This document shows, piece after piece, positions 1 to 18,291 of a DNA stretch of 24,270 nucleotides. Under the pieces are notes generated by a model that was not told where the DNA came from, ran no database searches, and worked only from the letters and a program-made list of their open reading frames with translations. Source of the stretch: a virus (Duplodnaviria; Heunggongvirae; Uroviricota; Caudoviricetes); IMG/VR virus record IMGVR_UViG_2541047718_000009; one strand, given 5' to 3'. The translations under genes were made by a program, and so were the position numbers. Each line of letters starts with the position of its first letter. The stretch's first letter is position 1.

Positions 1-174
1 GAGGTAATACACCGTAAGAGCTGGAAAAACCGTGCAGAAGTGGAACTGGCCACACTCACGTGGGTGGACTGGTATAACAATCGACGATTGCTGGAAAGGC
101 TGGGCCATACTCCTCCGGCAGAAGCAGAAAAAGCTTATTATGCTTCCATCGGAAACGATGATCTGGCAGCCTGA
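1..174 (+). mobile_element. 3' end of an rve-type DDE transposase gene (IS3-family-like); partial at window edge, IS right end lies shortly downstream
   Basis: Frame-1 translation from position 1 reads ...KSWKNRAEVELATLTWVDWYNNRRLLERLGHTPPAEAEKAYYASIGNDDLAA and stops at TGA 172-174. The W-x-WYN-x-R ... P-x-E pattern is the characteristic C-terminus of retroviral-integrase-type (rve) transposases. The specific IS was not identified and the terminal inverted repeat could not be delimited. Confidence 0.6.
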
Positions 175-175
175 G

Positions 176-1045
176 TTCACAGATAAAACACTCTCCAGGA
201 AACCCGGGGCGGTTCAGCTTGGTACGCTGTCCAACCTGTGGGAGGCAATGACGGGGACCGCAACTAACGGCCTTGCGGCTATTGGCGGCGCATTTTCTGG
301 TGACGCCAAAAATATCACGCAATGGCTGGGGGAGTTGGGGGAAAAATTCACGAAGTTTGCGGATGAAAATCCCCGGGTTATTCGCGGCGTCGTCGGGCTT
401 GCTGCCGGTCTTGCGATTCTGAAACTGGGATTGATGGGCGTTGGCAGTGCCATCAGTATTGTCAGCAGGCTCATGTCGATGACGCCGATTGGCATGATTG
501 CGACGGCGATAGCCCTGGCTGCGGGATTAATTATCACTAACTGGGATGTTGTCGGACCTTATTTTAAGAAACTCTGGGAAACCATTGGTCCTTATTTTGA
601 GACTGGCTGGGAACTCCTTAAGAAAGTTTTTGCCTGGTCGCCGCTGGGGATGGTGATCAATAACTGGGGGCCGGTTGTTAAGTGGTTTCAGGATATGTGG
701 GACAAGCTGAAGCCAATTATTGAGTGGTTTACCGACAGTTCCGGTGACACGGTCGATGCCATTAACTCGGTGCAGTGGGGGGCGGGTGCTTATGATGCTT
801 ATGGGACGGGAATACCGGCACGGGGATACACACCTTATCCGGCGGTAGATCCGGCTCAGTCAAACAACGCCTCCGATGCCACAGGCCCGAATCCCTTCAT
901 GATTAACAAAGCTTCTGCGCCAAAAGTTGATGGTGAGATCAAGGTCTCTTTTGTGAATTCGCCTCCGGGTATGCGGGTTATGGAAACGCGATCCAGCGGT
1001 TTTGATGTCAGCCATGATGTTGGCTATACGCGCTTTGGCAGGTAA
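176..1045 (+). pseudogene. phage tail tape measure protein, C-terminal segment only (5' part displaced or truncated by the IS)
   Basis: The frame-2 ORF ending at 1045 encodes a Gly/Ala-rich hydrophobic stretch (GLAAGLAILKLGLMGVGSAISIVSRLMSMTPIGMIATAIALAAGLIITNW) and W-rich repeats typical of tape measure C-termini, directly upstream of baseplate genes. The first roughly 50 codons of the ORF-track entry (32..) overlap IS-derived sequence and are not tape measure. The 5' boundary is approximate. Confidence 0.6.
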
Positions 1046-1105
1046 TGAAAAATTAATCTGTTAATGAGTCCCACTCCGGTGGGATTTTTTATGTACGGAG
1101 TTTAT

Positions 1106-2434
1106 ATGACGTGGAAAGACAGACTTCAGGACGCGTCATTTCGCGGTGTGCCGTTTAAGGTTGAAGAAGAAAGTGCGGGAACCGGTCGTCGTGTGGAAAC
1201 GCACGAATACCCGAACCGCGACAAACCCTATACCGAAGACCTGGGGAAAATCACTTTCCGCCCGTCCATCACAGCTTATGTGGTGGGAGATGACTGCTTT
1301 GACCAGCGCGATCGCCTGATTGACGCGCTGAATAAACCCGGTCCCGGCACGCTTGTCCATCCGACTTACGGTGAGCTGAAAGTCTGTGTTGACGGGGAAG
1401 TTCGGGTCAGCACATCGAAGAGTGAAGGGCGTATTGTCCGCTTTGACCTGAAGTTTGTCGAAGCGGGAGAACTCTCTTACCCCACTTCAGGTGCGGCGAC
1501 GGCGCAGACGCTGATGTCATCCTGCTCTGCACTGGATGACTGCATCAGTGACAGCTTCAGTGGTTTCAGTATCGATGGCGTGGCGGATTTTGTGCAGAAC
1601 GACGTCGTCGGTAATGCCGGCACAATGCTGGGGTATGTTTCTGATGCGATGAAAGTGGTGGATTCTGCCGTATCGGATGCCGCCAGGCTGTTGCAGGGGG
1701 ATATCTCGGTACTTCTGCCGCCGCCATCGTCAGGCAAAAATTTCGTTGAGCAGGTGCAGAAAATGTGGCGTACCGGGAAACGCCTTTATGGTAACGCCAG
1801 CGACCTGGTCACCATGATCAAAACGCTTTCCGGTGTCAGCCTCGGCAGCGATCTGCAACCGCGCGGTGTCTGGAAAACGGACAGTAAAACCACCGCCACG
1901 GCGACGCAGCAGCGTAACGTGGTTGCCAGCATCCTTCGTACGACCGCAATCAGCGAAGCGGCGTATGCCGTCACCCGATTGCCTGCGCCAACAACTTCCG
2001 CGGTGATGCAGAATGCCGCAGTGGGGCAGGCAACAACACCCGCGCAGAGCACTGGCTGGCCTTCCGTCACGCATCCGGCACTGAACAATGCTCCGGCGGT
2101 GAAAAGCACGGTTGACCTGCCGACGTGGGAAGAACTGACTGACATTCGCGACACACTGAATACGGCAATTGATAAGGAGTTGTCCCGTACAACCAGTGAT
2201 GCGCTGTTTCTGGCGCTGCGCCGGGTGAAAGCAGATCTGAATGCGGATATCAACACGCGCCTTGAACAGTCTGCACGGATCATTCAGCGCACGCCGGATG
2301 AGGTTTTACCCGCGCTGGTGCTGGCGGCGACCTGGTTTGATAACGCGGCGCGTGACGTGGACATTATCCGGCGTAATGCCATTACGCATCCCGGCTTTGT
2401 GCCGGTGATCCCTCTGAAGGTGCCAGTGCAATGA
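1106..2434 (+). CDS. DNA circulation protein (Mu gp43/N-like), tail-associated
   Basis: The translation MTWKDRLQDASFRGVPFKVEEESAGTGRRVETHEYPNRDKPYTEDLGK... matches the N-terminal domain family of Mu N-type DNA circulation proteins. It sits between the tape measure and gp44-like genes. Start chosen at ATG 1106 because GGAG lies 5 nt upstream; the ORF track starts at 1064. Confidence 0.75.
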   Translation: MTWKDRLQDASFRGVPFKVEEESAGTGRRVETHEYPNRDKPYTEDLGKITFRPSITAYVVGDDCFDQRDRLIDALNKPGPGTLVHPTYGELKVCVDGEVRVSTSKSEGRIVRFDLKFVEAGELSYPTSGAATAQTLMSSCSALDDCISDSFSGFSIDGVADFVQNDVVGNAGTMLGYVSDAMKVVDSAVSDAARLLQGDISVLLPPPSSGKNFVEQVQKMWRTGKRLYGNASDLVTMIKTLSGVSLGSDLQPRGVWKTDSKTTATATQQRNVVASILRTTAISEAAYAVTRLPAPTTSAVMQNAAVGQATTPAQSTGWPSVTHPALNNAPAVKSTVDLPTWEELTDIRDTLNTAIDKELSRTTSDALFLALRRVKADLNADINTRLEQSARIIQRTPDEVLPALVLAATWFDNAARDVDIIRRNAITHPGFVPVIPLKVPVQ

Positions 2435-3510
2435 ACGATAACGTCACGCTACGGGTAAATGACCGGGAGTGGAATGGCTGGACATCGGTGCGCATCGGTG
2501 CCGGTGTTGAACGACTGGCGCGGGATTTCAGTGTGGAGATCACCCGCCAGTGGCCGGGAAATGAGGGTATTACCACGCTTCAGCCGCGCATTAAAAACGG
2601 TTCAAAAGTGGAAGTGCTGATTGGTGATGAGCTGGTGATCACCGGCTGGGTGGAGGCGACGCCCGTTCGTTACGATGCCCGTTCGGTCAGCACCGGTATT
2701 GCCGGACGTAGTCTGACCGCTGACCTGATTGACTGTGCAGCCGAACCGACACAGTTTAACGGACGATCGCTGGTACAGATTGCGCAGGCGCTTGCTGCGC
2801 CTTTCGGCATTGAGGTGGTGAACAGCGGTGCGCCGTCGGGTGTTATTCCTGATGTCCAGCCTGATCACGGTGAAACGGTGATTGAGGTGATCAACAAAAT
2901 ACTCGGTCAGCAGCAGGCGCTGGCTTACGACGACCCGCACGGCAGGCTGGTGATTGGCGGTATTGGCTCAACGCGTGCACATACCGCGCTGGTACTTGGG
3001 GAAAACATCCTTTCCTGTGATACGGAGAAGAGTATCCGGGAGCGGTTTTCTGTTTACCAGGTAGCGGGGCAGCGTGCCGGAAACGACGATGATTTCGGTG
3101 AGGCCACTACCACCGCGCTGCGGGCACGCACAGAGGACGCATTTATTGCCCGTTACCGTCCGATGTATATCAGGCAGACAGGGCAGGCCACGGGGGCTGG
3201 CTGTATTGCGCGTGCTGACTTTGAAGCCCGGCAACGGGCGGCGCGGACGGATGAAACCACCTATGTGGTGCAGGGCTGGCGACAGGGTAACGGTACGCTG
3301 TGGCAGCCCAACCAGCGGGTGATTGTCTTCGATCCGGTCTGTGGTTTCGACAATACCGAACTGCTTGTTTCGGAAGTCACGTTTACTCAGGACCAGAACG
3401 GCACCCTGACGGAAATCCGTGTCGGCCCGCCTGATGCTTATCTGCCTGAACCCGAAGCTCCCGGCGCGCGGAAAAAGAAAAAAGCCAGAGTACAGGAGGA
3501 CCCGTTCTGA
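2431..3510 (+). CDS. tail/baseplate hub protein (Mu gp44/P, phage late control D family)
   Basis: 359-aa product in the conserved position after the DNA circulation gene. Its start overlaps the upstream stop (ATGA), indicating translational coupling. Sequence is family-like by recall (NDNVTLRVNDREWNGWTSVRIG...). Confidence 0.7.
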   Translation: MNDNVTLRVNDREWNGWTSVRIGAGVERLARDFSVEITRQWPGNEGITTLQPRIKNGSKVEVLIGDELVITGWVEATPVRYDARSVSTGIAGRSLTADLIDCAAEPTQFNGRSLVQIAQALAAPFGIEVVNSGAPSGVIPDVQPDHGETVIEVINKILGQQQALAYDDPHGRLVIGGIGSTRAHTALVLGENILSCDTEKSIRERFSVYQVAGQRAGNDDDFGEATTTALRARTEDAFIARYRPMYIRQTGQATGAGCIARADFEARQRAARTDETTYVVQGWRQGNGTLWQPNQRVIVFDPVCGFDNTELLVSEVTFTQDQNGTLTEIRVGPPDAYLPEPEAPGARKKKKARVQEDPF

Positions 3511-4058
3511 TGAGGGCGATTGAAGCCATGCAGCGACAACTCCTCGGCCTGATTGGGCGGGCCGTGGTGAAAAGCATCAGTGCCGCCACGAAATGTCAGA
3601 CCGTGGATGTGTCCCTGATTGCCGGTGAACCCAAAGCCGGGGTTGAACATCTTGAACCCTACGGTTTTACCGCAAGGGCAAACAGCGGTGCGGAAGCGGT
3701 GGTGTTGTTTCCGGATGGCGACCGTTCTCATGCGGTGGTTGTTACGGTGTCGGACCGGCGCTACCGCCTGAAAGGGCTGCAGACGGGTGAGGTGGCTGTC
3801 TATGACGATCAGGGGCAGTCTGTGATGCTGACCCGGGAGGGGATCGTGGTGGACGGTGCAGGTAAAACGATCACGTTTCGCAATGCGCCCAGAGCACGTT
3901 TTGAAATGGACCTTGAAGTGACCGGACAGGTGAAAGACCTGTGCGACTCCGGCGGCACTACCATGTCAGCGATGCGGCTTGCCTATAACGGGCATCGTCA
4001 CAGAGAGAACGGTCAGGGCAGTAACACCGACAAACCTGATAAAGCGATGGAGGCATGA
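3510..4058 (+). CDS. baseplate assembly protein V (spike; Mu gp45-like)
   Basis: 182-aa product of gpV-like size and sequence style (MRAIEAMQRQLLGLIGRAVV...). Overlapping TGATG start-stop with the upstream gene. Confidence 0.75.
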   Translation: MRAIEAMQRQLLGLIGRAVVKSISAATKCQTVDVSLIAGEPKAGVEHLEPYGFTARANSGAEAVVLFPDGDRSHAVVVTVSDRRYRLKGLQTGEVAVYDDQGQSVMLTREGIVVDGAGKTITFRNAPRARFEMDLEVTGQVKDLCDSGGTTMSAMRLAYNGHRHRENGQGSNTDKPDKAMEA

Positions 4059-4483
4059 TGGAACTGTGGCTGACGGTGAACGGTAAACGCACCTGCGCCA
4101 GCGCACCGCTGGATCCGCTGACCCGCGCCGTGGTGATTTCCCTGTTTACCTGGCGGCGGGCGGAGCCTGATGACAACGCCGACGTCCCGATGGGATGGTG
4201 GGGGGATACCTGGCCTGCGGTACAGAATGACCGTTACGGCTCCCGACTGTGGCTGCTTCAGCGCAGCAAACTGACCAATCAGCTGGTGCAGACGGTAAGG
4301 GGGTATATCCGCGAATGCCTGCAATGGATGATTGATGACGGCGTGGTGTCCCGTATTGATCTGGATATCCGCCGCACCGGGATTAATGAACTGGGTAACA
4401 GTATCACTCTCTGGCGTCGTGACGGACCGGTAATGATTTCTTTTGATGATCTGTGGAGTGCGATAACGCATGGCGGACAGTGA
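4055..4483 (+). CDS. baseplate protein (Mu gp46 / GP25-W-like)
   Basis: 142-aa product in the conserved position between V-like and J-like genes. The start may be ATG 4058, which has better spacing to GGAGG at 4049-4053. Confidence 0.7.
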   Translation: MMELWLTVNGKRTCASAPLDPLTRAVVISLFTWRRAEPDDNADVPMGWWGDTWPAVQNDRYGSRLWLLQRSKLTNQLVQTVRGYIRECLQWMIDDGVVSRIDLDIRRTGINELGNSITLWRRDGPVMISFDDLWSAITHGGQ

Positions 4484-5528
4484 ATTTCAGCGCCCGACGC
4501 TGGCAGAAAATATCAGTATGCTCCGTAACGATTTATTCGCCAGGCTGGACGTCAGCGACACGCTCCGGCGCATGGATGAAGACGTGCGGGCAAAGGTGTA
4601 TGCGGCAGCGCTGCATACGGTTTACGGGTACATCGATTATCTGGCAATGAATATGCTGCCTGACCTGTGCGATGAGTCCTGGCTGGCGCGACATGCTGCG
4701 ATGAAACGGTGTCCGCGCAAGGGGGCCACGGCTGCCAGCGGGTATATGCGCTGGGAAGGTGTCAGCGATGGCCTGAAGGTGACTGCCGGGAGCGTGATTC
4801 AGCGCGATGACCTGGTTCAGTACACGGCAACTGCCGATGCAACCAGCGCCGGTGGTGTCCTGCGTGTGCCGATCACTTGCTCAACTACAGGCGCGGTCGG
4901 TAACGCTGACGACGGTACGGCATTAATCCTGGTCACGCCGGTGAATGGTCTGCCGTCTTCCGGTGTTGCAGATACCCTGACTGGCGGATTCGATACTGAA
5001 GATCTGGAAACGTGGCGCGCCCGCGTCATTGAGCGGTATTACTGGACGCCGCAGGGCGGGGCTGACGGGGACTATGTCGTCTGGGCTAAAGAAGTGCCCG
5101 GCATTACCCGCGCATGGACATACCGTCACTGGATGGGAACGGGAACTGTCGGTGTGATGATTGCCAGCAGTGACCTGATTAATCCCATTCCGGAAGAATC
5201 AACGGAAACGGCGGCAAGACAACATATCGAGCCACTGGCCCCGGTGGCAGGCTCTGATTTGTATGTGTTCAGGCCGGTGGCACATACGGTGGATTTTCAT
5301 ATCCGTGTGACGCCGGACACACCGGAAATACGGGCTGCCATCACCGCCGAGTTGCGTTCGTTCCTGCTGCGTGATGGTTATCCGCAGGGAGAACTGAAGG
5401 TGTCGCGTATCAGTGAAGCGATTTCCGGTGCGAACGGGGAATACAGCCATCAGTTGCTTGCACCAGCGGACAATATCTCCATTGCAAAAAATGAGCTGGC
5501 AGTTCTGGGGACGATTTCATGGACGTGA
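4470..5528 (+). CDS. baseplate J-like protein (Mu gp47-like)
   Basis: 352-aa product in the conserved order; overlaps the upstream gene by 14 nt. Confidence 0.75.
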
Positions 5529-6103
5529 CAAACGATGATTACATCCGTCTGTTGTCGGCGCTGCTGCCGCCCGGTCCGGCGTGGTCAGCCAGCGATCCGG
5601 CGATTGCCGGTGCGGCACCGTCATTAACTCGTGTTCATCAGCGTGCGGATGCCCTGATGCGGGAGCTGGATCCGCGCACCACCACCGAACTGATAAATCG
5701 CTGGGAGCGTCTGTGCGGCCTGCCGGATGAATGTATTCCCGCAGGGACACAGACCCTTCGCCAGCGTCAGCAACGGCTGGATGCGAAGGTTAACCTGGCG
5801 GGTGGCATCAACGAGGATTTTTATCTTGCACAGCTTGCTGCCCTGGGCAGACCAGATGCCACCATCACGCGATACGACAAAAGCACGTTCACCTGCTCAT
5901 CGGCCTGTACTGACGCGGTGAATGCGCCGGAATGGCGGTATTACTGGCAGGTCAACATGCCAACCACCACCAACACCACCTGGATGACATGTGGCGATCC
6001 CTGTGATTCCGCACTGCGTATCTGGGGTGACACCGTTGTCGAGTGTGTGCTTAACAAACTCTGCCCGTCGCATACCTACGTAATTTTTAAATATCCGGAG
6101 TAA
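5519..6103 (+). CDS. tail protein, DUF2313 / YmfQ / Mu gp48-like
   Basis: 194-aa product ([27 protein letters not shown]...) in the position directly upstream of the tail fiber gene; overlaps the J-like gene end. Confidence 0.7.
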
Positions 6104-6106
6104 TCC

Positions 6107-7057
6107 ATGCATCGTATAGACACGAAAACCGCGCAGAAGGATAAGTTCGGCGCGGGTAAGAACGGTTTTACCCGTGGTAACCCCCAGACCGGCACACCTG
6201 CCACCGATTTGGATGATGACTACTTTGACATGTTGCAGGAAGAACTTTGCAGCGTGGTGGAGGCCTCCGGTGCCAGCCTGGAGAAGGAGCGGCACGACCA
6301 GTTGCTTACCGCGCTTCGTGCGCTGCTGTTAAGCCGCAAGAATCCGTTTGGTGATATCAAATCGGACGGCACGGTGAAAACGGCTCTCGAAAATCTTGGT
6401 TTGGGAGATGGCTCCGGGAGGCTTATACAGTGTCAGGTGTTTAAAAGCTCAGGTACATACACTCCGACAAAAGGCACAAGATTTATTATTGTTGAAATTG
6501 TTGGTGGTGGTGGGGCCGGTGGTGGTTGTCAGGTCGGTTATCCCAATAATGCTGCTTGTGGTGGCGGGGGGATGTCTGGGGAGTATGTTAAAGCTCGCGT
6601 GGATAATCCAACCGTAACTACTGTGACAATAGGATATGGTGGCACTGGTGCAAGTGCGTCGGTTGGTGCTCCCGGGGGAGCAACCTCTTTCGGCAATACC
6701 ATAATTGCCAAAGGTGGTCTTGGTGGGAATGTTCTTGCTGAAGGCACTGCTCCTGGGGTTGTTGGTCCGTATGGAGCATATACTGAGCCGGGATTTACAG
6801 GTGCCAATATTATCGGGTCTGGAAGCGGTTATAGCTCACCAGGCGTTCGGTATTCCGGCAGTCTGGCGATGGGGGGGCCTGGCGGCGATTCAATCCTTGG
6901 TGCGGGGGCTGGGTCACAAGCCATTGTAGGCGAAGGTATTAATGCTAATGGCCATGGTGGTGGAGGCGGTGGTGCCTGTGTCTACGGTGGAGCGACGCAG
7001 CAGCGTGCCGGAGGTAGCGGAATGGCTGGTATTGCAATCATTTGGGAGTATGCGTGA
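6107..7057 (+). CDS. tail fiber protein: conserved N-terminal anchor region plus glycine-rich C-terminal distal domain
   Basis: ATG 6107 with GGAG 6 nt upstream. The N-terminal ~95 aa ([40 protein letters not shown]...) resemble prophage side-tail-fiber N-termini. The C-terminal two thirds are Gly-rich (GGGGAGGG..., HGGGGGGA) and the coding DNA becomes visibly more AT-rich from about 6400. Confidence 0.8.
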
Positions 7058-7452
7058 TGAACTATGCCGTTATAGAAAATGGTGTTGTTACCAATATTGC
7101 TGTATGGGATGGTGAGAGTGCCTGGCAACCAACTAATGCGTTAGTTATACCTGTATCCGATAATGTAAGAATTGGTTGGTTCTATGATAAGGGAAAGCTT
7201 TCGTCACCTACGCAGCCGCCAAAAACACATGATGAATTACTTCGTGAGGCAGAGAATGAAAGACAGTGTCTGCTGGATAGTGCTAATAGTTTAATTATGA
7301 ACTGGCAGTCAGATTTGTTACTCGGTATTATAAGTGAAAATAACAAGGGCAATCTTTTATTATGGAAGGAATATGTTAATAGTTTAATGTCAGTGGATTT
7401 ATCTTTAGTGCCAGAAATAACCTGGCCTGAAAGGCCAGAGATAATACGTTGA
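7057..7452 (+). CDS. tail fiber assembly chaperone (Tfa)
   Basis: ATGA overlap with the fiber stop at 7055-7057. The product [25 protein letters not shown]... has the typical Tfa N-terminus and size. The ORF track begins 5 codons earlier at 7042. Confidence 0.75.
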   Translation: MNYAVIENGVVTNIAVWDGESAWQPTNALVIPVSDNVRIGWFYDKGKLSSPTQPPKTHDELLREAENERQCLLDSANSLIMNWQSDLLLGIISENNKGNLLLWKEYVNSLMSVDLSLVPEITWPERPEIIR

Positions 7453-7469
7453 AATTATGTGGTGTATTA

Positions 7470-7489
7470 TTAGGGGGAGGCCCCCCTAA
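7470..7489. terminator. GC-rich hairpin between convergent tfa and acyltransferase genes (putative bidirectional terminator)
   Basis: TTAGGGGG (7470-7477), loop AGGC, CCCCCTAA (7482-7489): a perfect 8-bp stem. No clean U-tract on either side. Confidence 0.4.
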
Positions 7490-7493
7490 TAAA

Positions 7494-8519
7494 TTAGGAT
7501 GTGATTATTTTTCTGATTTTATCGTTCTTCTCCAGAAAGTGATAAGATAATGATGCCATTGCAGTATTAATAACAAAAAGTACAAGCCAGCTAAAAAGAC
7601 CATAGTTAAGAACAAATGAATTTTTATTATGATCAAGGTAATATAATATAGGTAATTGCATCAAATAAAACGAATAACTTATATCTCCAAAGTAAATGAT
7701 CGCTCTGTTTACAATATTGTTTTTGATGTTGATTTTTGCCAGGTGCAATAACATAATTGATATCGCAGGAATTGTGAGATAGTTCACCCCCATGGAGTTA
7801 TTGTTTTGCTGGGTGGTAGCATACAGAAATAATAAAATGCTTAATAGCCATGTATAATGGTTAACACGATAGCCATTTAAAAAAAGTATTGCGATACAGA
7901 CGCCCACCACAAATTCTGGTAACCTGTATATTGGAGTTGCGTAATATACGGACCAAACTACAGGTCCCTGAATTATATCAGATAATGGGATTAATAATGC
8001 TGAAGATAAATATGAAAAAAGTAAAACATAAATTACATTGTTTTTGTTGATGTTTTTTATCAAAAATGGAAATAGGGCATAAAAAAACAATTCCACTGAT
8101 ATTGACCAGGTACCGCTAAAATTCCAAAAATCGAAGGTCTGATAAATCCATGATTGCATTCCAGTAACAAACAAGAATATGCTTGCAATCATTTTTAAAA
8201 AGTTTGCATCGCTGGATAACAAAAATGGGAGGGTTAAAAGCCCACAAAATAAATAGGCTGGAAATATTCTTGCTATTCGCTTCCTGAAGTAATTGTTTGA
8301 CAAGGAACCATAGTAATTATAAGTCAAAACAAAACCAGAAAGCATGAAGAAAATACTCATGCCAATGACGCCATTGCTAATGGTTTTATTAATAAGCTCT
8401 CCAAAATTAACGGGGACTCTCATGTTAATGTGAAAAATAAACACATAAAAAGCAGCTATAAATCTTAAGATTGTTACTCCATCCATTTTTTTTCTTGTTA
8501 TGTTATTGGTACTAGTCAT
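7494..8519 (-). CDS. acyltransferase family 3 integral membrane protein (putative O-antigen / surface polysaccharide O-acetyltransferase)
   Basis: 341-aa very hydrophobic product with the family signatures: N-terminal R..H (GVTILRFIAAFYVFIFH), FFMLSGF and W-S-I-S-V-E-L-F-F-Y. The gene is strongly AT-rich relative to the flanking tail genes. Confidence 0.8.
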   Translation of the reverse strand: MTSTNNITRKKMDGVTILRFIAAFYVFIFHINMRVPVNFGELINKTISNGVIGMSIFFMLSGFVLTYNYYGSLSNNYFRKRIARIFPAYLFCGLLTLPFLLSSDANFLKMIASIFLFVTGMQSWIYQTFDFWNFSGTWSISVELFFYALFPFLIKNINKNNVIYVLLFSYLSSALLIPLSDIIQGPVVWSVYYATPIYRLPEFVVGVCIAILFLNGYRVNHYTWLLSILLFLYATTQQNNNSMGVNYLTIPAISIMLLHLAKINIKNNIVNRAIIYFGDISYSFYLMQLPILYYLDHNKNSFVLNYGLFSWLVLFVINTAMASLSYHFLEKNDKIRKIITS

Positions 8520-8715
8520 TTGAGGCTTCTCATGATTAAAAGGTTCGTTATTAAAACCATTAATAATACTCTACTTACTTATCAAGTATCAACGTTTTTA
8601 TGTGTGGTTTTAATTAACAGAATGCAAGAATAAATAATAATATTCTGTTTGCGATTTTTTAAATAATTGCACTTACTACTCCTCAGTGCGAGGGAGAATT
8701 GAGGATGGAATTGGG

Positions 8716-8858
8716 GGCTCCGTCCAAAATTTACCCCTGAATAATGGGTGTAGGCCAGGCGATTAATTGCATCAGGCGTTCCTCGCCAGAAGGTGGCGAT
8801 CATCTATGATGTTGGTATATCGACACTGTATAAGAAGTTTCCGGTCGGAGATAAATGA
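8716..8858 (+). pseudogene. remnant of a Gin/Pin/Hin-family serine DNA invertase (C-terminal HTH only; frameshifted, catalytic domain absent)
   Basis: The frame ending at TGA 8856-8858 reads ARRLIASGVPRQKVAIIYDVGISTLYKKFPVGDK, closely matching the C-terminal DNA-binding end of Gin/Pin-type invertases as I recall them (...QVALIYDVALSTLYKK...). An upstream GG-rich stretch (about 8730-8750) is recognisable only across frameshifts, and no N-terminal catalytic domain is encoded in 8520-8715. Confidence 0.65.
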
Positions 8859-8918
8859 AACCGTAGCACGTCGTATGCAAGAAGATCGTGCTGCGGTTTA
8901 TGCTTATCACTTAAAGAC

Positions 8919-9788
<870 letters not shown>

Positions 9789-10094
9789 CTAATCCTTTGA
9801 ATTTACATAGTAAAAAAAGATACTTTTCCTCATAGTGTGAATTAATTTTATGTTTCGTTTGATGATTGGACCGGTCTCGAAAACCGTAGGCACGTAGTAT
9901 GCGTTAATTTATGAGCAAACTACTTGTCTGCTGTTTTTCTGTCATTAGTCGTATATAGAATGATTCTCTATGCCTAACAAAGCATCACTAGTGCTAGATT
10001 ACGTTGTAGTCACTGTTTAAATATCCAGACAAAACATTTCCTTCTGGGTTGAATGAGTGATAGAGTTTCACCCATTAGACCCCTTGGAGGAATT

Positions 10095-11528
10095 ATGTCT
10101 GAATTTGAAGTGTTGGCACAGCATCTGCTGAAGGAAGCCGAGGCGGAAGAAAAGCTGCGACAGGAAAATGATAAAAAGCTTATCGAGAAAGTGCTGGAAA
10201 TCTATGATCAGAAGTATGTGGCTGAATTACTGAGAAAAGTCGGAAAAAATGAGTGGAGCCGTGAAACCATTAACCGCTGGATTAATGGCAAGTGTTTACC
10301 AAAATCGTTGACGTCAGTAGAAGAGTCTCTTCTGCGTAAGATGCTACCAGAACCACCTGCAAACCATCCGGAATATGCTTTCCGCTTCATTGACTTATTT
10401 GCTGGAATTGGAGGGATACGAAAAGGTTTTGAGGCTATTGGAGGCCAGTGTGTTTTTACCAGTGAATGGAATAAAGATGCTGTGCGTACATACAAGGCCA
10501 ACTGGTTTAACGATGAACAGGTGCATAAATTCAATCTCGATATTCGGGAAGTCACGTTGAGTGATAAAACCGATGTATTGGAAACGGATGCTTATGCATA
10601 TATTGATGAGCATGTGCCGGATCATGATGTGCTTCTTGCGGGGTTCCCGTGCCAGCCATTTAGTCTTGCTGGTGTTAGTAAGAAAAACTCACTTGGCCGT
10701 GCGCATGGTTTTGAATGTGAAGCACAAGGAACACTTTTTTTTGACGTGGCACGTATTATACGAGCAAAAAAACCGGCAATTTTTGTGCTGGAAAATGTCA
10801 AAAATCTGAAGAGCCATGATAAGGGTAAAACTTTCAAAGTCATTATGGAGACCCTTGACGAGCTGGGCTACGAAGTTGCCGATGCTGCAGAAATGGGAAA
10901 AAACGATCCAAAGATTATCGATGGGAAGCATTTTTTGCCTCAGCATCGTGAACGCATTGTTCTGGTCGGATTTAGACGAGATCTGAATATTCACAAGGGG
11001 TTTACCTTGCGTGATATCAGTCGTTTTTATCCGGAACACCGCCCATCATTTGGTGAATTGCTGGAGCCTGTAGTCGACAGTAAATATATACTTACGCCAA
11101 AACTATGGGAGTACCTTTATAACTACGCCAAAAAGCATGCAGCCAAGGGGAATGGTTTTGGCTTTGGGTTGGTCAATCCTGAGAATAAGGAAAGCATTGC
11201 ACGCACACTTTCTGCCAGATATCACAAAGACGGATCAGAAATTCTTATTGATCGTGGTTGGGATATGGCAACGGGAGAGGCTGACTTTATGAATGAGAGT
11301 AATCAGGCTCGTCGACCACGCAGGCTGACTCCCCGAGAGTGCGCACGCCTTATGGGATTTGAAAAACCTGGAGGGAAACCATTCCGTATTCCGGTTTCAG
11401 ATACTCAGTCATATCGGCAGTTCGGTAACTCAGTTGTGGTGCCAGTATTTGAAGCTGTTGCCAGACTTCTGGAACCCTATATCCTCAAAGCTGTTTCTGC
11501 TGATGCTGGTAAGACTGGGCAGCCTTGA
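10095..11528 (+). CDS. DNA (cytosine-5) methyltransferase, Dcm / M.EcoRII-like
   Basis: C5-MTase motifs are present: [12 protein letters not shown] (motif I), [11 protein letters not shown] (motif IV, catalytic Cys), ENVKNL (motif VI), [10 protein letters not shown] (motif X). ATG 10095 is preceded by GGAGG at 10086-10090, giving a 477-aa product; the ORF track start at 10053 lacks an RBS. Confidence 0.9.
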
Positions 11529-11534
11529 GAACAC

Positions 11535-11557
11535 CTCCCGGCCTTTTAAGCCGGGAG
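11535..11557. terminator. hairpin between convergent methyltransferase and restriction genes
   Basis: CTCCCGGC (11535-11542), loop CTTTTAA, GCCGGGAG (11550-11557). Confidence 0.4.
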
Positions 11558-11562
11558 TCAGC

Positions 11563-12777
11563 CTATGATAGTTCAGCGTAAAGCTCTATCAGCTCAGTAA
11601 TGAATGCTCCGAGCGTTATTAATTCTTCTCTAACTGCTTCTGGGTATTTTTTATGTAAAGTTGATGGTACAACGAGTCTGACACCCGCATCTTTCATTTC
11701 TCGGTATTGTGCTGAAGAAACACCTTCTTGCAGTGTAAATAAATGTACCTGATGGATTTTATCTGCTTCATTCAGTATCTGACGCCAGCGATCTTTGCAG
11801 GTGGTCTTTACTGCCAGCATACGTAAGTTTTCTACAGGAAATTCAACGTTATGATATGCCTCTGCTGAAGGAAACAGGAAATCTGGTTTTTTATTACCTT
11901 CAGTAACTGCCTGAGTGGAGAAATGCCGTAGTCCGTGCTCGATAAAAAGCTTCTCTAGGTGAAGTTCAAGTGATTTGCCTGCCCTTGATTTACGTCGATT
12001 ACTGACAGAGTTGGCTAATGCAATAAACTCATCTACAGAATCGAATCCTTTCTTAATAATATCAAGAACATGTAATTCCTCGACGAGTAGAAAAATATCA
12101 TACTCGACACGCCGACGGTCAATCAGTTGCTCATCTGGATCCTTGGAGTTTTTAGCATAATGGCCAGCAGCATATTGAATAATTTCGTTTCCAGAAGGAA
12201 AACGCTTCTTCCAGTCTTCAGGAATAACATATTTATGATTTACTGGAGTTTGCTGAAGAGATAATCCGCCCAAAATTTGTCCGGCAGGGCCGGAAATTAG
12301 GGTTCCAGGTATGATTTCGCCAATAGCAGACTCGATGATATCCTCTTCATCGGGATTGACGCAGACCCATATATCTACCTCGGAACAGTCAGTGTTCTGT
12401 TCGTTTAACCTGAAAGCAAGAATTGTGAGAGCTCCTGTATTTTCAGGGTTCTGTAATGGACTTCCTCTCCCCCAGCGCGTAATTCTTTTTTCGTTTCGGG
12501 TCTTACCAAAATAACGGTTGTTGTAATAAATTGCGCGTGCTTGGGTATCAGGGCAATCATGGGATGATACATGCGCAGTAAGGAAGACTGAAGGGTTCAG
12601 TTCGCGAGTATGATTGATAGATGGAAAAAGCTTTTCAACGATATTTGAGGGGATATAAAGTCCGACCTGATGGCCACCTGTTGCGCCAGTGTCGTTTGCA
12701 GAAAGGCGTTTGATGTAGATAAAGTAATTCCCGCTTGCGATATCAAGCAGCCAGTTATGAAAAACCGACATATACAT
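11563..12777 (-). CDS. type II restriction endonuclease, EcoRII family (CCWGG-type)
   Basis: 404-aa product whose N-terminus (MSVFHNWLL..YIKRLSANDTGATGGHQVGLYIPS) matches my recollection of R.EcoRII. It is convergent with a Dcm/M.EcoRII-like methylase. Family assignment is by recall, not a search. Confidence 0.7.
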   Translation of the reverse strand: MYMSVFHNWLLDIASGNYFIYIKRLSANDTGATGGHQVGLYIPSNIVEKLFPSINHTRELNPSVFLTAHVSSHDCPDTQARAIYYNNRYFGKTRNEKRITRWGRGSPLQNPENTGALTILAFRLNEQNTDCSEVDIWVCVNPDEEDIIESAIGEIIPGTLISGPAGQILGGLSLQQTPVNHKYVIPEDWKKRFPSGNEIIQYAAGHYAKNSKDPDEQLIDRRRVEYDIFLLVEELHVLDIIKKGFDSVDEFIALANSVSNRRKSRAGKSLELHLEKLFIEHGLRHFSTQAVTEGNKKPDFLFPSAEAYHNVEFPVENLRMLAVKTTCKDRWRQILNEADKIHQVHLFTLQEGVSSAQYREMKDAGVRLVVPSTLHKKYPEAVREELITLGAFITELIELYAELS

Positions 12778-12858
12778 CCCTTTGTTAGCATACAGTCAGG
12801 GTTAACATTTTTCCATAGTTATAGATAAGCGGCTAGGAACTTAAGGGAAAAACAAAAA

Positions 12859-12880
12859 GCCCGCATAAGCGGGCTTTTGT
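12859..12880. terminator. bidirectional rho-independent terminator candidate
   Basis: GCCCGC (12859-12864), loop ATAA, GCGGGC (12869-12874), followed by TTTTGTG on the + strand and preceded by AAAAA (a U-tract on the - strand). A second perfect 14-nt palindrome GGAGCCGCGGCTCC follows at about 12889-12902. Confidence 0.5.
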
Positions 12881-13005
12881 GTCACTCGGGAGCCGCGGCT
12901 CCTTTGCGTATCCTTTTTTGTCTCCTCACCGTCTGGTCGGTGTCCTGCTGAGACTGCTAACTTCCTGTTTTTGTTGGTGTTGTCCTTACACCGTCCAATC
13001 ATGAT

Positions 13006-13028
13006 TGGTGGAGCTGGCGGAGTTTGAA
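13006..13028. repeat. distal att site of the P4-like element (direct repeat of the ssrA 3' end)
   Basis: TGGTGGAGCTGGCGG at 13006-13020 is identical to 23869-23883 (complement of the tmRNA 3' terminus ...CCGCCAGCUCCACCA), with AGTTTGAA versus GAGTTGAA continuing the similarity. A 14-nt perfect palindrome CCAATCATGATTGG overlaps its left edge (12995-13008). Confidence 0.7.
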
Positions 13029-13162
13029 TAAATATTGTATTGCTTTGATTTTTAATGATTTTATTTAATTTAGTTTTTGTGCGTATACTTAATCGTATAC
13101 CAATGGCTGTAAGTTAATGTGAAATGAAAGCGCATTTTTACTTGGATTGATGCTATATCGTA

Positions 13163-13468
13163 CAGGAAAAAAATTTTTTTTCGAAAGAACTGTTCACACT
13201 GTTCACCTTTCTTTTTTCTCCTTTTATTTCAGAGTGATAGGTGGTGAATAATGGGTGAAGGGTGAACATTCGATTCTTCACCTCCGGCATTCTGCCGGTG
13301 TGACTCATACCGGTGATTAATCCCCCGTACTGAAATCACTCAGGAAGAAAAAAGTTTTTTTTGATTTGATTGTTCACACTGTTCACCTTTCGTTTTTCTC
13401 TTTTAATTTCAGTATGATAACGGGTGAATATACGGTGAAGGGTGAACACTGGATTGTTCACCTTCGGG
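13163..13468. repeat. crr-like cis replication region: two ~125-bp direct repeats carrying TGTTCACC / GGTGAACA iterons
   Basis: Unit 1 is about 13163-13286 and unit 2 about 13343-13468, period 180 bp. Exact octamers TGTTCACC occur at 13200-13207, 13380-13387 and 13455-13462, and GGTGAACA at 13261-13268 and 13441-13448, with further one-mismatch variants. Located immediately 3' of the alpha gene, as in P4. Confidence 0.75.
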
Positions 13469-13480
13469 GGATGTCGGGAT

Positions 13481-13506
13481 AAAAAAAAGACCGGCAGATG
13501 CCGGTC
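13481..13506 (-). terminator. rho-independent terminator after alpha
   Basis: On the minus strand: hairpin GACCGGCATCTGCCGGTC (13489-13506) followed by eight U (13481-13488), 8 nt after the alpha stop codon. Confidence 0.7.
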
Positions 13507-13513
13507 AGGTGGG

Positions 13514-15847
13514 TCAGGTTGTTGCAGGGGCGTCACATTTTGGCAGCCAGTCGCCGTAGCTTTCCTCTTTCAGCGTCAGGTTGGTCTGTATCCCCTGTTT
13601 GGTATGGCGCTTCTCGTAATTCAGCCCGTATTCTTTCAGCATCACCGGTAGCCCCAGTCCGAACATTTTCAGACTGAGTACATTCCGGTAGCCGTTTGCC
13701 TCCATGTAGGCCAGATAGGCGTGATAGAGGTATTTACGGTAATTACGCGGGATGATACTGGCGTTCCCCATATACATGCCGCTGGTCTGCGGCAGGGTTT
13801 CCAGATAGCCGATAAAATCAAACGTCGGGTCGGCATCCCGTTTGATGTTCAGTGCCTCGTCTGAGTTCTGCTGGGACTGAAGCAGTGACCGGGCGAGCAT
13901 CGGGTCGCTGAACTTCTGCATCAGGTGACGCACGATGACCGCCAGCTCGCGGGTGATTTTGTCCTTAAGCTGCGGGTCGCGCTCCTGCGGGGCTATCTGT
14001 TCCGGGAAGTGAATAATCACCCGCCGGCGTGACACGCCGCCGCTGCGGTCGGTGAAGCGCATCGGGTTATTGTTCACGGCCAGAATCACCGCCGGGATGT
14101 GCGTGGAGTACGCATCCCGGTATTTCGGGTCAACGGACACTGCATCGCCGCCGGTGATGGCCTTGAGTCCGGCTCCGTCGCCGCTCCATTTTTCCTGGTC
14201 CGGCAGGCGTATCAGTGAGAAGCCAGTTAACGCGGCACGTTCACGCGGGGATTCCAGCGTCTCAATGGTGGCCGACGTGGCGTTATCCTCACCGGCCAGC
14301 AGGGTGGCTATTTCGGCCATGATACTTTTGCCGCTGCCGCCGGGACCGGTCACCTCCAGAAAGAGCTGCCAGTCGTAGCGGTTTGCCAGCACCATAAACA
14401 GTGCGGCCAGAATCACGTCGCGTTTTTCCGCACGACCACCGGCAGCACGGTCAAGCCAGCGCCAGAACGCGGGAGCGTGGGTTTCCAGCGTTTCACCGTC
14501 CACCGGCGGGGTGAAATCCACATCACACAGGGTACGCATCCAGTGTGACGGACTGTGCGGGTGGAACGTACCGTTCTGCGTGTCGAGCACGCCGTTACGA
14601 AAGCCAATCAGGCGGCGGGAGGGGGCTTCCTGCTGCGGAATAATCAGCTTCAGGGTGTCCACCACGGAGGCCACCTTCCCGGAGGAGAACGGCGCGCGCA
14701 GACGCTGAAACAGCCCGGCCACATCCCGGGCAAAGTCCTGTGGCGGCAGCACCTTCCAGACACCATTTTCATAGCGGGACAGAAGCTGGCCGTTGGCATC
14801 GACCGCGAGCGCCTCGCCGTAATGCTCATAGATACGCATGGCCTTTTCGCTGGTACTCATGGCGGAAAACTCCGCTTCGCTCATGGTGTCGAACGGGCTT
14901 TCAGCCGGTGGCCGGATGGCATCATAAATGGCCTTACGGGTGGCTTCCCCGCCGTACTGCGTGAAGGCATCATTCCAGTCACCGAAGACCGGCGGCAGGG
15001 CAACAACACCTTCACACGCATCTGCGGCTGCGGCGGCTTTTTTCTGGCCGTCACCGCTGAGGTCACGGTCAGCAGCAAGGACAATCTGACAGGCCGGATG
15101 CTTCTGCCGGGCAAGGCTGGACAGAGAAAGGAGATTCACGGAAGAAAGCGCCACCATCACCGTTTCACCGGTCAGGTGATGCACGGTAAGTGCGGTCGCG
15201 TATCCCTCCGCTATCCACAGACGTTTTCCGGCCTGATTCTGTCCTTCAAGGGTGTGACAGGTGCCCCTGACCTGTCCGCCTTTCAGGGTGCGCTTACGGC
15301 CGTCAGCACTGATTAACTGAAGGTTAACCAGTTCGCCGCTGTCGTCATACAGTGGCACCACAAGGTCACCAGCACGCCAGCTCACGCCACCGGCTCTGTG
15401 TGTGCCGGTCAGCATCCGGCATTCCCGGCCGGGAAAGCCCTTGCGGGTCAGGTAGGCGTTACCGGTTCCGGGACGGGTTTTCGCTATCAGGGTTTGTGCC
15501 AGTGCGGCGGCGTTCTTCCGGGCAGCGTCTGTTTCAGCACCGGCGGCGGCCGTCACTGCCGGGTCAGCCGGGGGCAGGCTGCCGGTCACGGCAGCCACCT
15601 TTGCGGCCGCGTCGGACGGGGAGACACCAAACACCTTTTCAACCAGTTTCAGGCCGTCACCGGCACCACACTGATTGCAGTACCAGGTGCCGCGCCCCTC
15701 CCTGTCATCAAAACGGAAGCGGTCACTCCCGCCACAGACCGGACAGGGCTGATGACGGTTTTTCAGCACCTGAATCCCCAGCGCCGGGAGAATACGCGGC
15801 CAGTGGCCGAGCGCATGGCTGACGGTGGCGGTTACGTTCATTTTCAT
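13514..15847 (-). CDS. alpha: P4 alpha-type primase-helicase (replication initiator)
   Basis: 777-aa product with an N-terminal zinc-binding CPVCGG...CNQCG motif and a primase/D5-type helicase arrangement; I recall P4 alpha as about the same length. AAGGAG lies 9 nt upstream of ATG 15847. Flanked by iteron regions. Confidence 0.85.
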   Translation of the reverse strand: MKMNVTATVSHALGHWPRILPALGIQVLKNRHQPCPVCGGSDRFRFDDREGRGTWYCNQCGAGDGLKLVEKVFGVSPSDAAAKVAAVTGSLPPADPAVTAAAGAETDAARKNAAALAQTLIAKTRPGTGNAYLTRKGFPGRECRMLTGTHRAGGVSWRAGDLVVPLYDDSGELVNLQLISADGRKRTLKGGQVRGTCHTLEGQNQAGKRLWIAEGYATALTVHHLTGETVMVALSSVNLLSLSSLARQKHPACQIVLAADRDLSGDGQKKAAAAADACEGVVALPPVFGDWNDAFTQYGGEATRKAIYDAIRPPAESPFDTMSEAEFSAMSTSEKAMRIYEHYGEALAVDANGQLLSRYENGVWKVLPPQDFARDVAGLFQRLRAPFSSGKVASVVDTLKLIIPQQEAPSRRLIGFRNGVLDTQNGTFHPHSPSHWMRTLCDVDFTPPVDGETLETHAPAFWRWLDRAAGGRAEKRDVILAALFMVLANRYDWQLFLEVTGPGGSGKSIMAEIATLLAGEDNATSATIETLESPRERAALTGFSLIRLPDQEKWSGDGAGLKAITGGDAVSVDPKYRDAYSTHIPAVILAVNNNPMRFTDRSGGVSRRRVIIHFPEQIAPQERDPQLKDKITRELAVIVRHLMQKFSDPMLARSLLQSQQNSDEALNIKRDADPTFDFIGYLETLPQTSGMYMGNASIIPRNYRKYLYHAYLAYMEANGYRNVLSLKMFGLGLPVMLKEYGLNYEKRHTKQGIQTNLTLKEESYGDWLPKCDAPATT

Positions 15848-15861
15848 GGTGTTGTTCTCCT

Positions 15862-16182
15862 TCAGTGCAGTACCGGCGCTTTTATGTGACGGGCACAGAG
15901 TTCATCCATCACAACCAGCCCGAGAAAGGACAGCGACGGCGCGGCCTTCAGGGGGCCGGATTCCATTAAATCTTCCAGCAGGGCACAGGCTATCTGACGC
16001 CCTTTTTCCTCACCGTGCTGGCGCAGATAAAAGCCTTCCAGCTCAGCGGCGATGGCCGCCTCCAGTGATTCAAGGGTGAGATGCGGGTAGCGGTGCTGAC
16101 GTTCGCACACGGTCAGCCAGGCACAGGCGACAGCACGACGGTAAAGGGCTGCGCGTAAGACGGGCGGTAAGGGTGTTTTCAT
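15862..16182 (-). CDS. hypothetical protein of the P4-like left operon (106 aa)
   Basis: GGAGG 6 nt upstream of ATG 16182; stop lies 14 nt before the alpha start. Function unknown. Confidence 0.6.
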
Positions 16183-16317
16183 TTGCTTTCCTCCCTGTGA
16201 CAGATGACTGCATTCCGTGCCGGTTGCATTAACTGATAAGGCATATCTGCGTCTCCTGAAGACGTGCGTATCCCTGCGCGAATACGCACATTTAATTTTT
16301 CGGGTGTCGTTTTTTAA

Positions 16318-16773
16318 TTACAGATAATTGCGGTAACTGTTATCCGGGGTGGTTTCCGGGTCAGGCTCCGTGCGGGGAATTTCCCGCCATTCCCGCGCCA
16401 CCGGTGCCGCCCGGCTGACCGGAACAGGGGCCTGCGGGTAAATATCCAGATATTTCTCCCGCCATTTCTGTAATTCCGGGTCTCCGGCCATTTCTTTCAG
16501 TACCGCATGCCGGTTTACGGGGCTGCGTTTAAACAGGTCAGGACGGTCACAGGTAAATTCCCGCAGAAAACGCCCCAGCGGGATGTCTGTGGTGCGCCCG
16601 TCAGCGAGGATACGCACAAGGATACTGAATTTACGGCGGTACGGGTTCCAGACAATGTCCGGGCAGCGGTACGGCATTTCCCACGGAATACCGTCTTCCA
16701 GAATGCCGACCACGGCCACATCGGGAAAACCGGCAGAACGGTAAATCTCACCGGGCTGGGGAAAATCAAACAT
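16318..16773 (-). CDS. hypothetical protein of the P4-like left operon (151 aa; P4 orf151-like by position and size)
   Basis: GGGGAG RBS upstream of ATG 16773; overlaps the stop of the upstream small gene. Confidence 0.6.
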   Translation of the reverse strand: MFDFPQPGEIYRSAGFPDVAVVGILEDGIPWEMPYRCPDIVWNPYRRKFSILVRILADGRTTDIPLGRFLREFTCDRPDLFKRSPVNRHAVLKEMAGDPELQKWREKYLDIYPQAPVPVSRAAPVAREWREIPRTEPDPETTPDNSYRNYL

Positions 16774-17053
16774 GCGTCCTGTCTCCCCGGTCTTTCTGCT
16801 GGGCGAGAAAATCGCGGCACAGGCCTTTGGCTTTCAGCTCATTCAGCACAAAATCAATATCTTCATTCAGGTAGCTGAAAATATGCGGAATGTAGAGCTG
16901 ATGCAGGCCGGAGAGTTCACGGTGAATCAAATCCCCCCCAACAAACTGGGATACGGCGCTGGCGCGGTTGAGCTTATGGTAAGCCTCAATGCTGAGGTGT
17001 TCACGGGCGTCATGACGTGCTGAGACGGTCTGAGGGGCTTTTTTATTACGCAC
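16766..17053 (-). CDS. small left-operon protein (95 aa), possible epsilon-like derepressor (assigned by position only)
   Basis: GTG 17053 is preceded by GGAGG with 6-nt spacing. The longer ORF-track version (to 17209) adds a Cys/Pro-rich N-terminus without an RBS and is judged spurious. Confidence 0.4.
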
Positions 17054-17243
17054 GGGACACCTCCACCACCGGCAGACGGGCAGCAAGGGAGAGCACATAG
17101 TCACGGACAAGGGAACGGCGGGCACTGCGTTCATCACCGGCGACGGTGCGAAGCATACAGATACGGGGATGACGGTCTGCGCGACGGACAGCCGCAAACA
17201 CAAAGACAAATTCAGGGTGTGAAGGGGTAAGGGTTGTAGCCAT
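17046..17243 (-). CDS. small protein (65 aa), unknown function
   Basis: ATG 17243 is preceded by GGAGG at 8-nt spacing; its stop overlaps the start of the 95-aa gene, suggesting coupling. It is the C-terminal part of ORF-track entry 17046..17690, whose upstream portion lacks support. Confidence 0.4.
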
Positions 17244-17641
17244 GATGGCAGCCTCCGTTAGATAGCAGGTTACGCTATCGCCGGAGTTTCCACGCTCGAT
17301 GGCGATAGCCCAGACGGGGGTGGAAATACCGGCTCTAACGGATACCGGCCAGCCCGGAGGCTGCCCCGCCTGAGCTACCATTGACTCTGCGGCATAATGA
17401 GCGGACGCGGGCAGGATGCACGGAGTGCCATCTGCTCGACTGACCACACACCACACCATAATCTGGCGCTCTGTGGCGTTGATTGCGACACAAAAAAAGA
17501 CGCATGGCGCGTCATATGTCGCCGTTAGATTGCTCGGGTTTCCACGCCCGGCTGCCGATTTTGCGACAGCGGAAAAACTATATCCGCAAATGCCGGAAAA
17601 AGGCAAGCCAGAAAAAGGGACTTTTTGCAGAACAGGCATCA

Positions 17642-17908
17642 TCATGCGTCGTACCCCCGTTTGCGTCCGGCAATGCGTCCGGCCATCCATGCGGTGACTT
17701 CAGAGTGCAGCCAGGCCACATTTTTACCGCCAAGACTCACCTGCGGCGGAAATTCCCCCTTACGGATGAGTTCGTAGATGGTCGAGCGTGACAGGCCGCA
17801 CAGGTGCATCACTTCCGGCAGACGTAAAAAACGCTCCTGCGTGATGTCCGGCAGCGGCATCAGTGGCGTCACAGGGGCGGGAGACGGGGAAGAAAAAACA
17901 GCTTGCAT
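17642..17908 (-). CDS. vis: AlpA / P4 Vis-family small HTH regulator (excision and transcription control)
   Basis: 88-aa product with the AlpA-type signature [54 protein letters not shown] 7 nt upstream. First gene of the leftward operon next to ori. Confidence 0.75.
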
Positions 17909-18188
17909 CGGGCTACCTCGTTAATGTCCATACAGCACCGGATAAGTCCGTCCGGCTTCGGGTAGCGCTTTATTTTGTGAATATTTTCAGCAGACGCAAC
18001 AGGGGGGATTTGTTCCGGCAGCCTTACAATGGCTGTGCATTTTTTTGTACATCAGCGCCAGATAGCTTTAAAACGCTCTGGAAGGAGCTGGAAAAAATTA
18101 TAGTGAAATACAAATTGTTTTTTCTTATTTATTTCAGTGAATTAATAAAAATAAAAAGTAATAAACAGCACAAAAAGCCCATCAACGG

Positions 18189-18291
18189 GTGAACAGTGGT
18201 GAACAGACGGTGAACAGTCATTACTGCGATTGTTCACCCTTTAACTTACTGTATTACTTATCTTTTTTATTAAGGTGAACAGAGGTGAACA
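18189..18291. promoter_or_regulatory. P4-type origin of replication (ori): iteron cluster around an AT-rich spacer
   Basis: GGTGAACA at 18189-18196, 18198-18205, 18209-18216, 18274-18281 and 18284-18291; TGTTCACC at 18231-18238; AT-rich stretch at 18240-18273. About 4.9 kb from the crr repeats, consistent with my recollection of P4 ori-crr spacing of about 4.5 kb. Confidence 0.75.

Follow-up and report, generated by a model that had tools for sequence, protein, structure and literature searches.

Introduction

IS629, IS1203 and IS3411 are isoforms of one insertion sequence, and the published sub-types of IS629 are 4-5% apart (PMC3271280). A high proportion of the IS629 copies of E. coli O157, 62%, lie in prophages or prophage-like elements (PMC3271280). 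The decay of prophages driven by IS629 is well documented. Two known phage systems resemble the locus described here. In the Shigella phage SfV, gtrABV is found between the tail fibre assembly gene and int/attP, and the tape measure gene is orf14. The cryptic prophage e14 of E. coli K-12 belongs to the same phage family and is defective; it keeps baseplate and tail fibre genes, the pin invertase and a restriction gene (ymfQ, stfP, tfaE, pinE and mcrA), sits at icd and has retained its integrase.

In this study, we analysed a stretch of viral DNA of 24,270 nucleotides (the window) that begins within an insertion sequence (IS) followed by part of a phage tail tape measure gene. Entries for the IS and for the tape measure pseudogene are present in the existing RefSeq annotation. 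Using megablast, we compared window positions 1-1100 with 5426 complete E. coli genomes and obtained a 100% full-length match in five of them (IAI39, CE10, N32, AR_0013 and AF57). The context to the left of the window was inferred from these five public genomes, none of which is strictly identical to it; where they overlap the window they are 99.94-99.99% identical. AR_0013 matched at 99.99% over 24,270 bases, with one mismatch and one 1-bp indel, and AF57 showed two mismatches and one gap over the 21.1 kb available. Our results indicate that positions 1-216 are very probably the right end of an IS629-type element of the IS3 family standing at a deletion junction in an SfV-like prophage.

An IS629-type element opens the window

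The following features were located at the start of the window:

1-216, + strand: right end of an IS629-type insertion sequence of the IS3 family (element positions 1095-1310; identical to L001:12001-12216 in IAI39)
1-174, + strand: C-terminal end of transposase OrfB (rve integrase core), last 57 codons plus TGA, from the translation and Pfam rve_2 and rve_3
192-216, no strand assigned: right terminal inverted repeat TCTCCAGGAAACCCGGGGCGGTTCA with the terminal CA of the IS3 family, pairing with the left repeat at L001:10907-10931

The first-pass annotation of the window had proposed that it opens in an rve-type transposase frame stopping at 172-174, and the translation and the Pfam matches agreed with this. 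Frame 1 is open from base 1, reaches TGA at 172-174 and encodes 57 residues (EVIHRKSWKNRAEVELATLTWVDWYNNRRLLERLGHTPPAEAEKAYYASIGNDDLAA*). The Pfam models rve_2 and rve_3 cover the C-terminal part of the integrase core, and the 57-residue peptide alone matched rve_2 (E 9.5e-5, 22.9 bits against a cut-off of 22) as well as rve_3. The same annotation had called the element a fragment. This description stems from the window edge, which cuts an element that is complete in IAI39, CE10 and N32.

We then used IAI39 to describe the whole element. It is 1310 bp long (L001:10907-12216), inside the range of ~1.2-1.55 kb for the IS3 family, and window positions 1-216 are its identical right end. Its 25-nt terminal inverted repeats, TGAACCGCCCCGGGAATCCTGGAGA and TCTCCAGGAAACCCGGGGCGGTTCA, are 92% complementary and 1260 nt apart, and only the right one falls in the window. 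The element runs from TGAACCGCC to GGCGGTTCA, which gives the TG...CA ends of the IS3 family. It has the two overlapping frames of that family, orfA and orfB, with a programmed -1 frameshift. OrfA matched Pfam HTH_Tnp_1, and OrfB matched HTH_21, rve (E 8e-28) and rve_3. The frameshift-stimulating ALIL pseudoknot was detected by Rfam with 120 bits against a gathering score of 50. PGAP also noted the programmed frameshift and named the element IS3 family or, in two genomes, IS3-like element IS629 family transposase. The element is like IS629, IS1203 and IS3411 of E. coli O157:H7 and Shigella in its length of 1310 bp, its 25-nt repeats, its -1 frameshift with ALIL and its rve DDE domain. Compared with the IS629 copies of strain 2015C-3163, it shows ~95% identity along its whole length and 97% in the last 216 bp, and a divergence of this size falls inside the published spread of IS629 sub-types (PMC3271280).

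The element is also present in many copies. In the five strains, 30-39 places per chromosome matched the 1-1100 query, nearly all of them to its IS part, and the query found matches in 4373 of the 5426 genomes.

Only the 3' part of the tape measure gene follows the element

Two features were assigned downstream of the IS:

217-1045, + strand: 3' remnant of a phage tail tape measure gene, codons 336-611 of 611 plus the stop, a pseudogene, by alignment to the intact 611-residue gene of APEC O78 and 2015C-3163
1066-1087, + strand: terminator-like hairpin with a T-run just past the tape measure stop, from a consensus scan whose count was not above shuffle expectation (a pattern match only)

The intact gene measures 1836 bp (611 residues) in SfV (orf14) and in the prophages of APEC O78 and 2015C-3163. 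Alignment to it begins at gene nucleotide 1008, so the break lies after nucleotide 1007. In the window, the similarity starts at position 215 (211 in a few records) and runs in frame 2 to the stop at 1043-1045. The tape measure frame thus restarts 40 bases past the transposase stop, just downstream and in another frame, as had been proposed. Codon 336 (CAG) takes its first two bases from the CA at 215-216 with which the IS ends; that the canonical IS3 terminus also fits the codon is a coincidence.

The surviving part consists of 276 codons, or 45% of the gene, with no frameshift and no internal stop. The first-pass annotation had suggested comparing the length with intact relatives, and this comparison left codons 336-611 of 611; in relation to SfV orf14, PhageMin_Tail is missing. 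This domain occupies residues 88-296 of the intact protein and is wholly gone, and Pfam gave no match on the remnant. A full-length tape measure gene, with ~611 codons, PhageMin_Tail and a place between chaperone and baseplate genes, was not found here, and the chaperone, tube and sheath genes that should precede it are absent. PGAP labels the remnant 'incomplete; missing N-terminus'. The 276-codon remnant is a dead pseudogene which, on its sequence, belongs to the SfV orf14-type family by descent and not as a functional member.

Besides the five full-length matches, ~526 further records matched positions 215-1100 only, at up to 99.9%, and all of these are annotated as phage tail tape measure protein. 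With five 100% matches over 1100 bases and these ~526 records, the observation of an IS joined to a tape measure gene is far above chance.

We considered and rejected two readings of this region. The 337-codon open reading frame at 32-1045 is the tape measure frame continued mechanically into the IS end, out of the transposase frame. Expression of the remnant from the IS end was rejected because the consensus scan detected no sigma-70-like promoter within window 1-1300.

Independent insertions of IS629/IS1203 were seen at other tape measure positions in two unrelated strains, in the O121 strain WL1277 (H104, NZ_CP193494.1 1292604-1293542) and in APEC 102026 (H105, NZ_CP087290.1 3490898-3491390). 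These suggest that the homologous tape measure gene has been hit repeatedly by IS629/IS1203.

The left flank of the element is ypjA

The first-pass annotation had read the locus as an IS truncating the tape measure gene by insertion. We examined the sequence to the left of the IS in the five genomes and found that in all of them it is the first 1469 bp of ypjA, which encodes the chromosomal adhesin-like autotransporter YpjA/EhaD, and not the tape measure gene. In IAI39, this fragment (L001:9438-10906) holds 1469 of 4557 bp, with the C-terminal two thirds lost; the residual frame reads 16 codons into the IS before it stops. PGAP describes the truncated gene as 'AIDA repeat-containing protein, missing C-terminus'. 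Up to the last base before the IS, the flank is 100% identical to the intact 4557-bp gene of strain GF131.

The order across the junctions is ypjA ending in ...GAACTGACGGT, then IS629, then the tape measure gene beginning with GCTTGGTACGCTG... At the corresponding points, intact ypjA reads GACGGT followed by AGTGGC, and the intact tape measure gene has GGCCCA before GCTTGG. The bases bordering the IS are GGT on the left and GCT on the right, from different genes; neither target-site duplication nor microhomology is seen at the junctions. A search for the IS ends to the left of the window had been advised, and it returned the inverted repeats and not the duplication. In this the element is unlike the usual IS629, which has a 3-bp target duplication. 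A copy at a deletion or recombination junction is expected to lack the duplication, and its absence counts against simple insertion and not against the identity of the IS. The two junctions were shared by the same five of the 5426 complete genomes and were absent from all others, a distribution that suggests one event in a single clone. The 5' part of ypjA and the 3' part of the tape measure gene keep their native relative orientation.

To search for a reciprocal junction, we used two synthetic queries, in which the 303 bp of the tape measure gene up to the break were followed by 300 bp from one or the other end of the IS. No tape-measure-5'/IS629 junction was found at this site in the 5426 genomes. 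The tape measure N-terminus had been described as missing or displaced. It is missing, by 335 codons. A displaced 5' half was rejected on the flank geometry and the missing reciprocal junctions at the site, and an inversion was rejected because the flanks are in native orientation and reciprocal junctions are lacking.

These results bear directly on a simple insertion, in which IS629 would have transposed into the tape measure gene and the 5' half would adjoin the left end of the IS. Taken by itself, the right junction (window 1-240) has just this appearance, and homologous tape measure genes carry independent IS629/IS1203 insertions in two other genomes. With ypjA as the left flank in 5/5 junction genomes, no 3-bp duplication, and neither synthetic junction at the site in all 5426 genomes, simple insertion is refuted for the five public genomes and is hardly conceivable for the window.

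An empty site and a full-length prophage at the same position

Strain GF131 represents the empty site. Here an intact ypjA of 4557 bp stops at a distance of 160 bp from the ssrA 3' end, and the 5' region of the gene is 100% identical to that of the five carriers. On the right side of the prophage, similarity to this strain resumes from window 12851-12854, ~10 bp past the point where ypjA stops. Identity to the empty-site strain is 92-93% in the native spacer of 155 bp downstream of ssrA and 99.5% in ssrA itself (window 12851-13028). Since similarity in the spacer resumes at 12851-12854, the SfV-like prophage and its cargo lie between ypjA and the spacer and not within ssrA, unlike the P4-like element described below.

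A full-length prophage at the same ssrA-adjacent position was found in strain 2015C-3163, with the same cargo of GIY-YIG, methyltransferase and endonuclease genes. Its gene order is integrase, early genes, lysis, P27-type terminase, HK97-type head and Mu-type contractile tail, followed by the 611-residue tape measure, baseplate, invertible tail fibres, pinE, GIY-YIG, Dcm-type methyltransferase, type II endonuclease and then ssrA. It is collinear with window 215-6415 and 8708-13028, at 98.6-98.7%. To the left of this prophage lies a different island, not ypjA. A search for a left att site in 2015C-3163 returned only a 10-bp repeat (E 0.3), and a 32-bp fragment of the ssrA 3' end was part of the neighbouring island.

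The 2015C-3163 prophage is itself starting to decay, as seen at L008:1-916 and 16854-18067. An IS629 splits its DUF968 gene, there are frameshifts in several tail-fibre genes, and a further IS629 sits just beyond the integrase end.

Probable deletion at the element

The identity and completeness of the IS, both of its flanks, the missing target duplication, and the empty-site and full-length states were all observed. One IS copy whose heterologous flanks keep their native relative orientation, as seen here, is the mark of an IS-associated deletion. In the proposed history, the ancestor of the IAI39/CE10/N32/AR_0013/AF57 clone would have carried an SfV-like temperate myovirus prophage between ypjA and ssrA, with GIY-YIG and restriction-modification genes in its lysogenic-conversion slot. 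An IS629-associated deletion would then have taken the ~3.09 kb of ypjA from nucleotide 1470 to its end, any sequence that separated the gene from the prophage, and ~29.5 kb of the prophage, as judged from the full-length relative, starting at the integrase end and reaching tape measure nucleotide 1007. One IS copy between unrelated flanks would have been left, for a total loss of ~33 kb. The feature is an ordinary IS629-bounded deletion scar, part of the routine decay of an SfV-like prophage, and it resembles known IS629 in favouring prophages as targets and in accompanying deletions (PMC3271280, PMC9943667). The local picture is thereby corrected from an insertion into the tape measure gene to a marker of a ~33 kb deletion, and this deletion serves as a clone marker common to the five extraintestinal isolates. 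The same event would have inactivated the YpjA/EhaD autotransporter gene, leaving ypjA without its C-terminal two thirds.

Most likely, the deletion arose when an IS629 copy in ypjA underwent homologous recombination with a second, directly oriented copy in the tape measure gene. We infer this route from the 30-39 query matches per chromosome and from the published location of 62% of O157 IS629 copies in prophages or prophage-like elements (PMC3271280). The intermediate, with IS629 at these sites in an otherwise intact ypjA or tape measure gene, was found in none of the 5426 complete genomes.

A deletion starting from a single IS copy could have given the same end product, one IS without duplication. 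It would have proceeded through transposase cleavage with end joining of the IEE (IS-excision enhancer) type, or through an IR-IR junction attacking a nearby target. IEE-dependent deletions beside IS629 range from a few nucleotides to >40 kb (PMC9943667, citing Kusumoto 2011), and neither a second IS copy nor an intermediate is preserved here. The iee gene was found in strain Sakai at L009:43954-46314. IAI39 and CE10 presumably belong to phylogroup F. Most of the genomes carrying IEE, however, are of phylogroups B1 and E (PMC9943667), and with 30-40 copies per genome, recombination between two copies needs no special machinery. We regard the single-copy route as possible, though unlikely, and recombination between two copies as the favoured one.

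It was also considered that the lineage never held a complete prophage and imported a pre-truncated segment, from IS629 and the tape measure remnant to the cargo, by homologous recombination anchored in IS629 and in ssrA/smpB. In favour of this, prophages of the cargo-bearing family occur widely at the locus, relatives in other phylogroups match the segment at 98.6% identity, and IS629 copies offer portable homology. Such an import requires a donor with IS629 at tape measure nucleotide 1008, found in none of the 5426 genomes, and a recipient with IS629 at ypjA nucleotide 1469, found in none outside the five; it is also less parsimonious than a deletion in place. An import is thus very improbable, and deletion in place remains our preferred reading.

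Gene content of the remnant prophage

Downstream of the tape measure remnant, the following genes were found:

1106-6103, + strand: six intact Mu-type baseplate genes (DNA circularization protein, baseplate hub, assembly protein V, gp46, baseplate J/gp47 and YmfQ/gp48), with lengths as in intact prophages
6107-12850, no strand assigned: truncated stfP tail fibre gene, tail fibre assembly gene, acyltransferase gene, 152-bp pinE 3' fragment, and GIY-YIG, Dcm-type methyltransferase and type II restriction endonuclease genes, from the annotation

The prophage left in the lineage amounts to ~12.6 kb (window 217 to ~12850). Its baseplate region aligned without gaps to intact prophages over 6.2 kb, at 98.5-98.7%. 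In the Shigella phages SfI, SfII and SfV, the tape measure remnant and the six baseplate genes have counterparts in the same gene order with 97-98% DNA identity. The slot that holds gtrABV in SfV contains the acyltransferase, GIY-YIG and restriction-modification genes in the remnant.

The genes expected of an intact SfV-like prophage, namely integrase/excisionase, repressor, replication, lysis, terminase, portal, capsid, sheath and tube genes, were all missing. This holds for the ypjA-ssrA interval in IAI39, CE10, N32, AR_0013 and AF57, apart from the separate P4-like satellite of AR_0013 and AF57, whereas the relative 2015C-3163 has them all. The remnant prophage is certainly defective, and neither heads nor tails can be made. 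The first-pass annotation had anticipated a defective prophage with a decayed invertase, and both points were borne out: the locus of every junction carrier lacks integrase, regulatory, lysis, terminase, portal, capsid, sheath and tube genes, and pinE is reduced to its last 152 bp (window 8708-8859). The remnant and e14 share the names ymfQ, stfP, tfaE and pinE in annotation. In contrast to e14, the remnant has lost its integrase end, is bounded by IS629 and has its pin gene cut to 152 bp.

In comparison with the full-length prophage, window 6416-8707 is a 2.3-kb module that replaces the invertible tail-fibre segment and the first 403 bp of pinE. The module consists of a tail-fibre C-terminus, a tail fibre assembly gene and a 341-residue acyltransferase gene, and 66 of the 5426 genomes contained it at >=80% coverage. 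In CE10, the acyltransferase gene is broken into two open reading frames.

The retained cargo had been put forward as the selected part of the prophage. Selection is not demonstrated by its retention, because the six baseplate genes, which have no obvious stand-alone use, are equally intact. In this region, identity of the five carriers is 99.94-99.99%, with differences of ~0.03-0.06% or a handful of positions in 13 kb, so neutral decay has had too short a time to act. It is conceivable that the end points of the deletion are not accidental and that the pruning by IS629 was kept by selection, with the lethal inducible part stripped away and the defence cargo by ssrA kept. If true, this would offer a snapshot of a prophage becoming a defence island, with a GIY-YIG nuclease, a Dcm-type methyltransferase with its type II endonuclease, and an acyltransferase as cargo, and the restriction-modification pair would resist loss through post-segregational killing. 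With baseplate genes just as intact as the cargo and strains that have barely diverged, we consider selection for the pruned state doubtful. A restriction-modification pair next to a locus of essential function could bias which deletions survive. The locus is a caution against inferring selection from which prophage genes survive.

A satellite prophage and a group II intron at the locus

Window 13029-23868 holds a P4-like satellite prophage of 10.8 kb that is inserted in the ssrA 3' end. Its products are a primase-helicase of 777 residues, Icd-like, Sid, ogr/Delta and Psu proteins, a DEAD-box helicase and, from a gene adjoining ssrA, an integrase. On both sides it is bordered by a duplicated 23-bp stretch of the 3' end of ssrA (13006-13028 and 23869-23891). 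AR_0013 and AF57 have the satellite, and IAI39, CE10 and N32 lack it. Being found in only two of the five junction carriers, it arrived after the IS629 deletion.

In AR_0013 (L003:8861-11130) and at the same place in AF57 (L006), the junction IS629 is split by a 2270-bp group II intron with ltrA, which encodes a reverse transcriptase/maturase. Rfam Intron_gpII scored 64.9 bits on the intron. The insertion point follows element position 795, and the 3' end of the intron is 299 bases left of window position 1. The intron occurs only in the two genomes with the P4-like satellite, and the IS copy is unoccupied in IAI39, CE10 and N32. The group II intron E.c.I4 has 15 copies in IAI39, all within IS629, IS911, ISEc16 or ISEc31 (PMC3522654). 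The intron of AR_0013 and AF57 is putatively E.c.I4 and fits the homing of E.c.I4 into IS3-like transposase genes (PMC3522654); unlike the features listed above, it sits outside the window. Judging from the intron in these two genomes, the transposase gene is probably dead in the window's own genome.
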